Virus record (IMG/VR): IMGVR_UViG_3300029623_000256
Source: a virus
Lineage: Duplodnaviria; Heunggongvirae; Uroviricota; Caudoviricetes
Reading direction: 5' to 3' (one strand)
Length of the DNA: 5,226 nucleotides
The translations under genes were made by a program, and so were the position numbers. The notes beneath the pieces were generated by a model. The model worked only from the letters and a program-made list of their open reading frames with translations. It had not been told where the DNA came from and searched no databases. Shown here piece by piece: positions 277 to 5,226 of the stretch; within the stretch, counting starts at the first letter, position 1, and every line of letters begins with the position of its first letter.

Positions 277-1476
277 ATGAAGATCGTAAAGGCTGAAGTT
301 TTTGTTACCTGTCCGGGGCGTAATTTCGTCACATTAAAAATCACCACTGAGGACGGTATTACGGGCCTTGGGGATGCCACCCTAAATGGACGTGAGCTTT
401 CCGTGGCCTCTTATTTGCAGGATCACCTTTGTCCGCAGCTTATTGGTCGCGATGCACACCGTATCGAAGATATCTGGCAGTTTTTCTATAAAGGTGCTTA
501 CTGGCGTCGCGGTCCGGTTACGATGTCGGCCATTTCAGCGGTTGATATGGCGCTGTGGGATATTAAAGCCAAAGCTGCCAACATGCCGCTTTACCAGTTA
601 CTCGGCGGCGCGTCTCGTGAAGGGGTGATGGTTTATTGCCATACCACCGGTCACAGTATTGATGAAGCTCTGGATGATTATGCCCGTCATCAGGAGCTGG
701 GATTCAAAGCCATCCGCGTGCAGTGCGGAATCCCTGGTATGAAAACCACCTACGGCATGTCGAAAGGTAAAGGTCTGGCTTATGAACCCGCAACCAAAGG
801 ACAGTGGCCGGAAGAGCAGCTGTGGTCGACGGAGAAATACCTCGATTTCATGCCGAAATTGTTTGACGCGGTACGTAACAAGTTTGGTTTTGATGAACAT
901 CTGCTGCATGACATGCACCATCGCTTAACGCCTATTGAAGCGGCGCGCTTTGGTAAGAGCATTGAAGATTATCGCATGTTCTGGATGGAAGACCCGACGC
1001 CTGCGGAAAACCAGGAATGCTTCCGTCTCATTCGCCAACATACCGTCACACCCATCGCGGTGGGTGAAGTCTTCAACAGCATCTGGGACTGCAAACAACT
1101 GATTGAAGAGCAACTCATCGATTATATCCGCACCACGCTGACCCATGCAGGCGGAATTACCGGTATGCGTCGGATTGCCGATTTTGCTTCGCTGTATCAG
1201 GTACGTACTGGCTCACACGGTCCTTCCGATTTGTCACCAGTCTGCANNNNNNNNNNNNNNNNNNNNNNNNNNNNNNNNNNNNNNNNCATGGGTTATTCCG
1301 AACAAATGCTCGAAGTCTTCCCGCACAACTGGACTTTCGATAACGGCTATATGCATCCGGGAGAAAAACCGGGCCTTGGCATCGAATTCGATGAAAAGCT
1401 GGCGGCGAAATATCCCTATGAACCTGCTTATCTGCCAGTCGCACGTCTGGAAGATGGCACGCTGTGGAACTGGTAA
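277..1476 (+). CDS. rspA: Starvation-sensing protein RspA, an enolase-superfamily mannonate/galactonate dehydratase-family enzyme
   Basis: The translation [40 protein letters not shown]...LEDGTLWNW is recognisable as E. coli RspA. The start at ATG 277 is preferred over the ORF-track start at 244 because of the AAGGAA site 8 nt upstream. The stop is TAA 1474-1476. The CDS contains a 40-nt N run (1247-1286), so 14 codons are unknown. The visible product is 399 aa against a recalled 404 aa for RspA, so the N run may not equal the true length. Confidence 0.93.
1247..1286. other. Run of 40 ambiguous bases (N) inside rspA, either an assembly gap or masked sequence
   Basis: Literal n characters in the sequence. 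The rspA frame is the same on both sides of the run. Confidence 0.97.
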
Positions 1477-1487
1477 GGAGTAAGGTA

Positions 1488-2507
1488 ATGAAAAGCATTT
1501 TAATTGAAAAACCGAATCAACTGTCGATTATCGAACGTGAAATACCCACCCCGTCAGCGGGTGAAGTACGAGTAAAAGTTAAACTTGCCGGAATTTGTGG
1601 TTCAGATAGCCATATTTACCGTGGGCATAATCCTTTTGCGAAATATCCGCGCGTCATTGGTCATGAATTCTTTGGCGTCATTGATGCAGTGGGTGACGGC
1701 GTGGAAAGCGCCAGAGTCGGTGAACGCGTTGCTGTCGATCCGGTGGTCAGCTGTGGGCATTGCTATCCGTGCTCTATAGGTAAGCCGAACGTTTGTACGA
1801 CACTTGCTGTATTAGGTGTGCACGCTGACGGTGGTTTCAGTGAATATGCCGTGGTTCCGGCAAAAAATGCGTGGAAAATTCCTGAAGCAGTGGCCGATCA
1901 ATATGCGGTGATGATCGAACCTTTTACCATTGCGGCTAACGTTACCGGTCATGGTCAACCGACTGAAAATGATACCGTTCTGGTTTACGGTGCCGGCCCA
2001 ATCGGCCTGACGATCGTTCAGGTATTAAAAGGCGTCTATAACGTTAAAAATGTGATTGTTGCCGATCGCATTGATGAACGACTGGAAAAAGCGAAAGAGA
2101 GCGGGGCAGACTGGGCGATTAATAACAGCCAGACACCGCTTGGCGAGAGTTTCGCTGAAAAAGGCATCAAGCCGACTTTAATTATCGATGCCGCTTGTCA
2201 TCCTTCAATCTTGAAAGAGGCCGTAACGCTGGCTTCTCCAGCGGCACGTATTGTATTGATGGGCTTCTCCAGTGAACCGTCTGAAGTGATTCAGCAAGGA
2301 ATTACCGGCAAAGAACTCTCTATTTTCTCTTCACGCTTAAATGCAAATAAATTCCCGGTCGTTATCGACTGGTTAAGTAAAGGGTTAATTAAACCAGAAA
2401 AACTAATTACCCATACGTTTGATTTCCAGCATGTTGCGGATGCCATTAGTTTATTTGAACAGGATCAAAAACATTGCTGCAAAGTCTTACTCACTTTTTC
2501 TGAATAA
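1488..2507 (+). CDS. rspB: Starvation-sensing protein RspB, a zinc-binding medium-chain alcohol/polyol dehydrogenase
   Basis: The translation MKSILIEKPNQLSIIEREIPTPSAGEVRVKVKLAGICGSDSHIYRGH... carries a GHEFFG zinc-ligand region, a C-x2-C-x2-C-x7-C structural zinc motif (CGHCYPCSIGKPNVC) and a GAGPIG Rossmann motif. It is 339 aa, matching recalled RspB. An AAGGAG site at 1475-1480 overlaps the rspA stop codon and sits 7 nt before ATG 1488, indicating translational coupling. The ORF-track start at GTG 1464 is rejected. Confidence 0.95.
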   Translation: MKSILIEKPNQLSIIEREIPTPSAGEVRVKVKLAGICGSDSHIYRGHNPFAKYPRVIGHEFFGVIDAVGDGVESARVGERVAVDPVVSCGHCYPCSIGKPNVCTTLAVLGVHADGGFSEYAVVPAKNAWKIPEAVADQYAVMIEPFTIAANVTGHGQPTENDTVLVYGAGPIGLTIVQVLKGVYNVKNVIVADRIDERLEKAKESGADWAINNSQTPLGESFAEKGIKPTLIIDAACHPSILKEAVTLASPAARIVLMGFSSEPSEVIQQGITGKELSIFSSRLNANKFPVVIDWLSKGLIKPEKLITHTFDFQHVADAISLFEQDQKHCCKVLLTFSE

Positions 2508-2564
2508 TACCAATAACGGCGAGTAAGTAGTACGCATCTTACCTCTTTTTTAGAGATAACCATT

Positions 2565-2669
2565 ATGACAATAGAAAAACACGAAAGAAGCACTAAGGAT
2601 TTGGTGAAAGCAGCAGTATCGGGATGGTTGGGCACTGCGCTTGAATTTATGGATTTCAAGAGTCATTGA
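2565..2669 (+). pseudogene. ydfJ: 5' fragment (34 codons) of an MFS metabolite:H+ symporter gene (ydfJ-like), truncated by prophage insertion
   Basis: ATG 2565 opens MTIEKHERSTKDLVKAAVSGWLGTALEFMDFKSH followed by TGA 2667-2669. The G-x3-E-x-x-DF segment resembles the conserved N-terminal signature of ProP/KgtP-type MFS transporters. The frame ends abruptly about 25 nt before the integrase stop codon, consistent with the Qin-type insertion into ydfJ recalled for E. coli K-12. Confidence 0.6.
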
Positions 2670-2697
2670 TAGTAACTATTTGATAATTAACAGTTTA
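2660..2697. other. Probable prophage/chromosome junction (att core region) between the truncated ydfJ fragment and the integrase 3' end
   Basis: AT-rich segment tcattgatagtaactatttgataattaacagtttaatt lying where the host reading frame is lost and the integrase stop (TAA, complement of 2695-2697) begins. Phage att sites typically abut the integrase 3' end. The exact core cannot be defined without the other prophage end or an empty-site allele. Confidence 0.35.
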
Positions 2698-3960
2698 ATT
2701 TTGCGTCGCCTTGTTTTGGGGCATGGTTGGGGCAAACTCGCTTAGCTGTGTATTTAACAGGGCTACCTGTGCATTATTGTTTTCAGACATCCATTTCCCG
2801 TATACCTGAAACACCATTTGCGCATCTGCATGTCCCATCTGGTTTGCTATGAATGCCGGGTTGGCACCGGCTGTCAGCGACCAGCAGGCATAAGTATGTC
2901 TCGACTGATATGATTTGCGGTGGCGGAGGCCAGCGCGCTTTATCGCTGCGTCCCACATCTGCCTTATTGAGTCAACGGTAAAATGGTCACCATAATTTTT
3001 TACTCTCGCTGACACTTCAGGTTGAAAAACAAAGGTGCATTTTTGTTTTTCTGTTCTGCCAAACTCTCTGAGGTGAACGTCAATAATATGCTCTTTGCTC
3101 AGCCTCGTTANNNNNNNNNNGATTGCAGGCTTGATAAGGTGAATTACCCGATTGGTACCAGCCTGTGTTTTCGGTACCGTAAAACGATCTTTTGCTAAAT
3201 TTCTTCTGATCATCATTGTTCCATTTTTCAGATCTATGTCCTCCCAGCCAAGCGCGCACAGCTCACCAGGGCGAATGCCTGTATAAACAGAAACGCACCA
3301 TAAATTTTTGGCCTGCTGATTCCTGCAGGCGTCGATAAGACGGATAAATTCCTCCCGTGAAAGAGGATCAGGAATGGTTCTTGATTCCTTTAATGGCGAG
3401 ATCCCCTTAAACGGATTATCTGCCAGGTAACCGTTATCAACACCAAACTGGAACACGGCGTAAAGATTTGTCATGTAATTATTTACGGTGACAGCCGATC
3501 TCCCCGGTTGCGTAACAATATAATTACTTTTGGGGATCTGGTATCCAGTAAGTAACTCTTTACGTACCGCCAGCAATTTTTCTTTATTAATCGACGATGC
3601 AAGATTTTTTTCACCGATTATGCTCAGAATATTTTTGATGACGGCACGGTACGTGTTGAGTGACGTTTTTGCGACTTCCGTTTCTTTCAGTGCCAGAAAT
3701 TTTTCAGCCAGTTCCTTTATGGTTAAATCTTGTCGGGCCTCACCAAATTTTTCCAGATTGTGTGAGGAGGGAAACTGTTTTGCATAGTCGAAAACACCAG
3801 TTTTTATTGCGTAACAAACAGAGGCGCGCAGCTCACCTGCAATGCGCCTGTTTTTTGCCGTGTCAGGAACCCCCAGATTTTCTCTGACTCTTACACCTTT
3901 ATAAACAAACCAGATACGCAATTTCCCTCCATGGTTTTCCACGCCTGTCGGATATTTCAT
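2695..3960 (-). CDS. int: Prophage site-specific tyrosine recombinase (lambdoid, Qin-site-type integrase)
   Basis: A 421-aa product beginning MKYPTGVENHGGKLRIWFVYKGVRVRENL (arm-binding N-terminal domain typical of phage integrases). The C-terminal region has tyrosine-recombinase box motifs: GIRPGEL, SRHTYACW, MGHAD and a candidate catalytic Tyr in QVYGKW. The start at ATG 3960 has a purine-rich AGAGAAG stretch upstream; the ORF-track start at 3975 has no ribosome-binding site. The CDS contains a 10-nt N run (3111-3120), so 4 codons are unknown. Confidence 0.9.
   Translation of the reverse strand: MKYPTGVENHGGKLRIWFVYKGVRVRENLGVPDTAKNRRIAGELRASVCYAIKTGVFDYAKQFPSSHNLEKFGEARQDLTIKELAEKFLALKETEVAKTSLNTYRAVIKNILSIIGEKNLASSINKEKLLAVRKELLTGYQIPKSNYIVTQPGRSAVTVNNYMTNLYAVFQFGVDNGYLADNPFKGISPLKESRTIPDPLSREEFIRLIDACRNQQAKNLWCVSVYTGIRPGELCALGWEDIDLKNGTMMIRRNLAKDRFTVPKTQAGTNRVIHLIKPAIXXXXTRLSKEHIIDVHLREFGRTEKQKCTFVFQPEVSARVKNYGDHFTVDSIRQMWDAAIKRAGLRHRKSYQSRHTYACWSLTAGANPAFIANQMGHADAQMVFQVYGKWMSENNNAQVALLNTQLSEFAPTMPQNKATQN
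3111..3120. other. Run of 10 ambiguous bases (N) inside the integrase gene
   Basis: Literal n characters. The integrase frame is maintained across the run. Confidence 0.97.
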
Positions 3961-3994
3961 TTCAGCTTCTCTCATTGGTTAGTGTGGCTTTTAG

Positions 3995-4246
3995 TCAAGT
4001 AAGATGGCGTCTTGGTCTTGCTAATGCCTGGCGCTCAATCCAGCGGTCAATTTCTTCCAGGTTGTAAAAGCATGGGCTGTTATCCCATGGCATACAGTCA
4101 TGGGCGACATGCTTATACTCTCTTCCTTCCATAAACGATTTTTCCCTGGCTTTTTTTAGCGTTCCCTTTTTTATTCCTTTCAGTGCAATTAGCTGTTCTT
4201 CGGATACCCATTTACCGGGAGAGACAATCATGACTACTTCGCTCAT
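3995..4246 (-). CDS. xis: Excisionase (lambda Xis-like winged-helix recombination directionality factor)
   Basis: An 83-aa basic protein encoded immediately upstream of int on the same strand, with a 34-nt gap. The segment KKGTLKKAREKSFMEGREYKHVAHD resembles the lambda Xis region ending DGREYLFHESA. An AAGAG purine-rich site precedes ATG 4246. Confidence 0.7.
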   Translation of the reverse strand: MSEVVMIVSPGKWVSEEQLIALKGIKKGTLKKAREKSFMEGREYKHVAHDCMPWDNSPCFYNLEEIDRWIERQALARPRRHLT

Positions 4247-4315: not shown

Positions 4316-5226
4316 TTAAAAATCAGCCTGACTCGGGATCAGTTTTTGCCAGATAGCTGAAACGTATTTTGCCTGGTAACGGGCGTCATCAAGTGCATTG
4401 TGGCGCTCACCGTCGAATGGAATATCCGTTCTGGCATCGAAGTTCAGGGTTTTTCCCAGCTCAACGATTGTGCGCACATCGCGATCGTTGCAATAACGCC
4501 ACGGGCAGGGGATCCCCTGCCGTTCGTATGAACGGCGTAAAATCACGTTGTCGAAGTTGGCTCCATTTCCCCAGACCTGAACAAAAAATTCACCGGAGTT
4601 TTCGTCGATAAATTCCCGCAATTGCAGTAGTGCATCATCTAACGGGATTTCATCGGTCAGAATGGCAGATTGCGCCTCGCGTGATTGCTTAAGCCACCAT
4701 TTAATGACGTCACGATCAATGACTCCGCCAGCAGTATCCAGATCGATGGTCTTGCTAAATTCCGGCCCCATCTCTCCGGTTTCGGGATCAAAGAATTTAC
4801 CGCCAATAGAGTTGATTGGCGCATCAGGATTTGTTCCCATCGTTTCAAGGTCGATCATCAGATGGTGCCACACTCTGCTGGTGGATGTGATAACGTGATG
4901 ACCGTTCACCGCAATTAAGGAATCTGCCGTCTCGCCAGTTTCATTATCGCTGGCGTGGTCCTGAGCGCTGCCAGCATTCTCCTTGTGTGGATGTTCAGCG
5001 CCTTCCATTTCCTCCGGATCATTTTCCTGAACTTCAGCCTGATTCTCTTCATCGAATGTTTCCTGGTATGTTGCGTCGCCCATCACCGCACCACAATCAG
5101 GGCAGTTGCCGCCGCCGGTCTGACCACAGGCGGTGCAGACTTTTTCCGCTTCCTGTTGCGCTACTGGCTCAGGTTGTTTCGTTTCTGGCTCGTTTTGTAA
5201 CGCATTTGGGCTGTTTTGTTCCGCTT
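4316..5226 (-). CDS. Prophage exonuclease with a C-terminal DEDDh (DnaQ-like) 3'-5' exonuclease domain, preceded by an acidic linker and a CxxC-x7-CxxC zinc ribbon; the 5' end lies beyond the right window edge
   Basis: The three DEDDh motifs are visible: Exo I MIDLETMG, Exo [13 protein letters not shown], Exo [16 protein letters not shown]. The ORF-track start at 5086 is a GTG, and the same frame stays open upstream to the window edge (...[48 protein letters not shown]...), so the gene is 5'-truncated by the window. The stop is TAA, complement of 4316-4318. Confidence 0.85.

Follow-up and report, generated by a model that had tools for sequence, protein, structure and literature searches.

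Where, in a piece of DNA that carries rspA and rspB on one side and phage integration genes on the other, does the chromosome give way to the prophage, and what became of the host gene at the boundary? The DNA analysed here (the window) is 5,226 nucleotides long, and a sequence-only reading of it had proposed that a prophage had split an MFS transporter gene directly downstream of rspB. Our comparisons indicate that positions 2508-2700 are almost certainly the attL (BOP') of a lambdoid prophage, inserted by its integrase at codons 28-31 of ydfJ, directly downstream of rspAB. The window is laid out as follows.

277-1476, plus strand: rspA, starvation-sensing protein of the mandelate racemase/enolase family, host flank (Pfam MR_MLE_N, MR_MLE_C)
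1488-2507, plus strand: rspB, Zn-dependent oxidoreductase, host flank, stop codon at 2505-2507 (Pfam ADH_N, ADH_zinc_N)
2565-2669, plus strand: N-terminal remnant of ydfJ (ydfJ'), a 34-aa allele of K-12 ynfP
2647-2657, no strand: att core identity TTATGGATTTC, common to attB and attP in an eight-sequence alignment
2658-2760, no strand: phage P' arm, overlapping the int 3' end from 2695, with homology to Qin attL and to attP (right side) of mEp460 and Tritos
2695-3975, minus strand: tyrosine integrase of the IntQ / ydfJ-site type (Pfam Arm-DNA-bind_2, 5.4e-24; Phage_integrase, 4.2e-18)
3995-4246, minus strand: excisionase xis, called xisR in AR_0017 (Pfam DUF1233, putative excisionase, 2.5e-30)
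4316-5226, minus strand: 3' part of a large prophage exonuclease gene (Rv2179c-like 3'-5' exonuclease domain, Pfam, 2.2e-64)

A search of complete E. coli genomes identified the host flank: the matching region carries the rspB annotation in thousands of genomes, and the rspA region is annotated as rspA in matching genomes. Over positions 2300-3000 the window is 100% identical to E. coli AR_0017 (NZ_CP024886.1). Two runs of N, at 1247-1286 (inside rspA) and 3111-3120 (inside the integrase gene), are compressed masks, shorter than the DNA that they stand for. Other strains have an rspA of 1215 nt, against 1200 nt in the window, and the 40 N of the rspA run therefore stand in for about 55 bases; the 10 N in the integrase gene stand for 25 real bases (9 codons, DALRNQMTL, in AR_0017), so that the true protein has 431 aa. 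Both differences amount to 15 nt, and the reading frames therefore survive, with downstream coordinates shifted relative to real genomes. The integrase start called by PGAP seemed to disagree with the ORF of the window, but the disagreement is only apparent, the N run being such a mask. Rfam, applied to the whole window at the gathering threshold, returned no RNA family.

The short ORF at 2565-2669 encodes MTIEKHERSTKDLVKAAVSGWLGTALEFMDFKSH (34 aa) and begins after a spacer of exactly 57 nt from the rspB stop codon. Pfam gave no match for the 34-aa fragment alone, which is too short, and its identity was therefore set by comparison with intact YdfJ of WP5-S18-ESBL-09 (locus L001, 455 aa), a strain without a prophage at ydfJ. 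The fragment agrees with residues 1-32 of this protein at 31 of 32 positions (E = 1e-20), the sole difference being Q32 to K, at the junction. From rspB through codon 31 the DNA of the two is nearly identical (two single-base differences), and the start, the context and the sequence of the stub all match the true ydfJ N-terminus. Intact YdfJ scores 462.9 bits against TIGR00883 (metabolite/H+ symporter, MFS; curated cut-off 443.45) over residues 23-418. The claim that a transporter N-terminus lies 57 nt after rspB thus holds, and the fragment, far from being unrelated to MFS transporters, is the beginning of a TIGR00883-family protein. In genomes with an empty site, where the gene order is rspB-ydfJ-ydfI, intact ydfJ runs past codon 31 directly after rspB, as had been anticipated. 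The description of the fragment as a clean N-terminus of 34 codons is right for the length of the ORF but not for its origin: codons 1-31 come from host ydfJ, and the phage P' arm supplies codons 32-34 (K, S, H) with the stop.

K-12 carries a counterpart at the same position, ynfP (b4534), which reads MTIEKHERSTKDLVKAAVSGWLGTALEFMDFKSHAC and is 36 aa long versus 34 aa in the window; the stub ends in KSH* here and in KSHAC* in K-12, a consequence of the different P' arm sequence immediately past the core. The K-12 RefSeq entry is 'protein YnfP', the tagged protein has been detected (PMC6001520, Table 1), and a ynfP deletion delays recovery from nitrogen starvation (bioRxiv 10.1101/2020.03.30.016519), which would fit an independent small-protein gene that only resembles a transporter N-terminus. 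We consider such a gene very improbable. In the 2009 genomes whose site is unoccupied, intact ydfJ is collinear with the stub in its first 31 codons, its ribosome-binding region and its 57-nt distance from rspB, which refutes an independent origin; the C-terminal codons and the stop track the phage arm, as expected of an accidental fusion, and being expressed says nothing for where ynfP came from. Annotation should treat the 34-aa ORF as what remains of ydfJ, of the ynfP type, and not as a new gene.

A remnant may nevertheless be expressed. In a scan of positions 2300-2900, neither a sigma-70-like promoter nor a terminator was found between rspB and the stub (the only terminator-like match, at 2757-2770 inside int, is at chance level), which suggests that the stub is co-transcribed with rspAB. 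It is thus probably still transcribed with these genes and translated, as YnfP is in K-12. That the chimeric stub (31 host and three phage codons, under rspAB control) is a functional small membrane-associated peptide is hinted at by the detection of YnfP and by the nitrogen-starvation phenotype of its deletion, and appears unlikely to us; if true, a new small-protein gene, with a C-terminus that varies with the phage arm (KSH* or KSHAC*), would have arisen from the insertion of the prophage at ydfJ.

To the base, the junction can be read from an alignment of eight sequences, comprising attL (window, K-12), attB, attR (AR_0017, K-12) and attP (mEp460, Tritos). The aligned sites are:

attB: GCGCTTGAATTTATGGATTTCCAGTTATATT
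attP: CACCTGTGAATTATGGATTTCAAGAGTCATACG (recombining stretch …CACCTGTGAATTATGGATTTCAAGAGTCAT…)
attL (window): GCGCTTGAATTTATGGATTTCAAGAGTCATTGA
attR (K-12): CACCTGTGAATTATGGATTTCCAGTTATATT

The 11-bp core lies inside the ORF, in ydfJ codons 28-31. On its left the window has the host-type extra T (2646-2648) and on its right the phage-type A (2658), which places strand exchange within the 11 bp. Compared with the empty site of WP5-S18-ESBL-09, the window stays in register to 2657, differs at 2658 (C in the empty site, A in the window), shares AG at 2659-2660 and is unrelated thereafter, so that host homology ends at 2657-2660. Positions 2658-2720 align with the right side of attP in mEp460 and Tritos, and the left side of the same attP aligns with attR of AR_0017 and K-12, where the reciprocal junction has the pattern …GTGAATTATGGA(T/C)TTCCAGTTATATT…. 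Judged from this alignment, the junction in the window is the int-proximal attL (BOP') in the lambda convention. A looser imperfect repeat, TGAATT(T)ATGGATTTC(A/C)AG, spans 2642-2660; it agrees in size with the published att of ydfJ prophages, an 18- or 19-bp sequence according to the S7 Fig legend of PMC8112680, the comparison being one of length.

The host/prophage boundary had been put at 2660-2697, with the AT-rich stretch in front of the integrase gene as the att site. A junction is indeed present, and the end of host homology falls at the lower edge of that range; the core, however, is inside the ORF, 10-40 bp further left. The AT-rich stretch (2661-2697) is instead the phage P' arm, which continues into the 3' end of int, where the integrase stop codon (2695-2697) lies 25 nt past that of the stub. 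Because the sequence beside the integrase matches the attP of free phages, it is phage DNA and not contiguous chromosome. For annotation, these results fix the host/prophage boundary at 2647-2660.

The alignment shows that attP (…CACCTGTGAATTATGGATTTCAAGAGTCAT…) and attB (…GCGCTTGAATTTATGGATTTCCAGTTATATT…) recombined within the common TTATGGATTTC in an Int-type reaction. This fused the first 31 ydfJ codons to three phage codons and a stop, giving the 34-aa ORF, an allele of ynfP, and displaced the remaining ydfJ (Met29 onward, 427 codons) by about 46.9 kb to the other end of the prophage. Two-domain Int, adjacent Xis, a short core in attP and attB and reciprocal junctions together make up the anatomy of classical lambda-type integration, and nothing contradictory to this structural reading was found among the sequence comparisons. 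We also weighed a rearrangement that is not site-specific (for instance by deletion, IS activity or faulty assembly), since K-12 Qin carries IS2 and deletions near its junction end, and PMC8112680 reports inversions in which a prophage at ydfJ and one at ompW take part. We give this reading almost no credence, for the window, K-12 and thousands of genomes break at exactly the same base, and this breakpoint coincides with the core common to the attP of independently sequenced free phages. Further, a reciprocal junction exists in AR_0017, no ydfJ bases were lost or duplicated beyond the core, and the alignment of attL, attR, attB and attP as reciprocal products contradicts a rearrangement of this sort.

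Integration at the att site of ydfJ leaves a second junction. The window holds one junction only, and the far end was inferred from AR_0017, which is identical to the window over the tested stretches. The other prophage end, which the sequence-only reading had suggested locating, was found there, about 46.9 kb away core to core by coordinate arithmetic, with a repeat of the core and the rest of ydfJ. The attR core (locus L003, 18311-18321) reads TTATGGACTTC, identical at 10 of 11 positions, and is followed by ydfJ from Met29 and then by ydfI. This remnant of ydfJ (1284 nt) is annotated as a pseudogene 'missing N-terminus', and phage tail genes and sitABCD precede it; the AR_0017 element as a whole has a full set of structural genes plus sitABCD.

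The consequences for ydfJ can be read from attR. The distal ORF begins at its own Met29 (ATG GAC TTC CAG…), which is the first in-frame ATG there, and is intact over 427 codons. The phage P arm gives no in-frame replacement N-terminus, and ydfJ is thus truncated rather than repaired. The distal ORF is without 28 residues, among them the first six positions of the TIGR00883 profile; the prophage separates it from the rspAB side, and the nearest gene at the phage end, sitA, points away from it. As the promoter and ribosome-binding site on the rspAB side, the 28 N-terminal residues and the start of the conserved region are all gone, we infer that full-length YdfJ is not made, and ydfJ is likely to have been inactivated by the insertion. 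Annotations are split on this point: PGAP calls the gene a pseudogene in AR_0017, and K-12 RefSeq keeps b1543 as a CDS. The intact 427-aa distal ORF and the RefSeq CDS leave room for residual expression of the transporter from a promoter at the phage end. A sequence search of the PDB with YdfJ gave no solved relative at E <= 1e-5, and the structural effect of losing residues 1-28 is therefore judged from the start of the TIGR00883 match (residue 23) and from a mild rise in hydropathy near residues 19-43.

On the prophage side, the integrase gene is intact in the window. Its product is identical to the AR_0017 integrase (WP_024188207.1) at all 422 of 422 readable residues, and is 95% identical in amino acids to Int of the free phage mEp460. 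The exonuclease frame is open to the window end and identical to the C-terminal part of an 824-aa AR_0017 protein, which places the Rv2179c-like domain at the C-terminus of a far larger protein. A 256-aa exonuclease ORF with a GTG start at 5086 was rejected as a listing artefact, given the frame open to the window end. With int, xis and both att junctions looking intact, the element may be excisable. The attR core TTATGGACTTC carries a T-to-C change relative to attB, attP, the attL of the window and the attR of K-12, and excision might be less efficient between two unequal cores; in the AR_0017 prophage, the tape-measure gene is annotated as frameshifted. Together, the changed core and the frameshifted gene suggest that the prophage may be defective rather than inducible.

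The sitABCD operon of AR_0017 (L003 18760-22209) encodes an iron/manganese ABC transporter and is cargo, located between attR and the tail-fibre genes; its transcription is directed away from what is left of ydfJ. In the matching genome, one insertion thus truncates one transporter and delivers another.

The junction and the ydfJ site are already known: this is the site of Qin, ynfP is annotated, and the att of ydfJ prophages is published. In K-12 MG1655, 'cryptic prophage Qin' occupies 1632277-1652745, between ydfJ (b1543) and ynfP/rspB, and a published description (PMC6379469) has Qin integrated at the 5' end of ydfJ, which cost the gene its promoter and 28 codons. Qin and the present element share the attB in ydfJ, the sequence across the junction, from the core on into the P' arm, the integrase family (with about 95% DNA identity across rspB-int), the ynfP stub and the 427-codon distal ydfJ from Met29. 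Qin, in contrast, is a decayed remnant of 20.5 kb in which intQ is truncated by IS2 and xis is absent, whereas int and xis of the window are intact; its cargo and its far lesser decay are all that set the present element apart from Qin.

A second group of relatives comprises the PPydfJ lambdoid prophages of STEC and EPEC and the free phages mEp460, Tritos, HannyBb and PhiR42_1, which share integration at ydfJ and a closely related integrase (the gene is 93% identical to that of the window in the four free phages). The attP core and the int-xis-exonuclease order are the same as in the window, but the P' arm diverges right after the core, and the cargo consists of nleC/nleG effectors or stx2a rather than sitABCD. 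On these comparisons the element is probably an intact relative of Qin and of mEp460-like phages. According to Nakamura et al. (PMC8112680), ydfJ prophages occur in many strains, and their att and attP have been defined, attP by PCR; the S7 Fig legend of the paper covers integration and excision for a related PPydfJ, that of strain 11368.

In our survey of 5426 complete E. coli genomes, in which a junction was called when at least 80% of a 701-nt query was covered, the rspB-stub-integrase junction was present in 2672 (about 49%), and uninterrupted attB in 2009 (about 37%). Any match to the query was seen in 5148 genomes, 319 of them at 99% identity or more. Few lambdoid sites in E. coli are occupied as often as ydfJ.

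Other lambdoid or defective prophages likewise have attB within a host coding sequence and remodel the end of the gene. The e14 element and phage 21 sit in icd, where the replacement 3' end that they bring keeps icd functional. Rac uses an intragenic site in ttcA (PMC6379469) and supplies an alternative TtcA N-terminus. The insertion at ydfJ is unlike these, in that the host gene is truncated and receives no replacement end.

The P' arm also contains candidate binding sites for Int, found in a motif scan:

2716-2723, P' arm: candidate arm-type site TTGGGGCA
2727-2734, P' arm: candidate arm-type site TTGGGGCA

The motif TKGGGRCA has two matches in the window, both in the P' arm, a count that is not significant alone (34 of 200 shuffles reach two matches). 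A repeat, TT(T/A)TGGGGCAT... (repeat family D2), is common to the P and P' arms of mEp460 attP, and for this reason we retain the hypothesis that the repeats containing GGGGCA are arm-type sites for Int.

The P' arm diverges right after AGTCAT, with TGATAG in the window, GCGTGT or ACGTGT in Qin and mEp460, and GCATAG in Stx2a_EH1535; the C-terminal residues of Int differ too (…PQNKATQN versus …PHNEAMKN). The P' arm and the part of int nearest att may thus form one mosaic segment and change in concert. Inside the int 3' end, at 2765-2785, the window carries ACCTGTGCATTATTGTTTTCA, a near-copy (18 of 21 positions) of the core region on the P side of attP (ACCTGTGAATTATGGATTTCA). In mEp460 the equivalents of the near-copy and the core region lie at 1592-1612 and 1465-1485 (L005), which leaves 127 bp between the near-copy and the true core. 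The near-copy may be the relic of a duplication, or it may serve Int as an additional core-type binding site. In Stx2a_EH1535 (L007, 1480-1500) a different left flank (…GTGCGAGTATTTATGGATTTCAAG) is joined to the core. The same flank lies in mEp460 (L005, 1262-1276) about 220 bp upstream of attP and holds the core-like TTGAATGATTTCCAG, which suggests either that a secondary site resembling att exists or that DNA between two core-like sequences was deleted.
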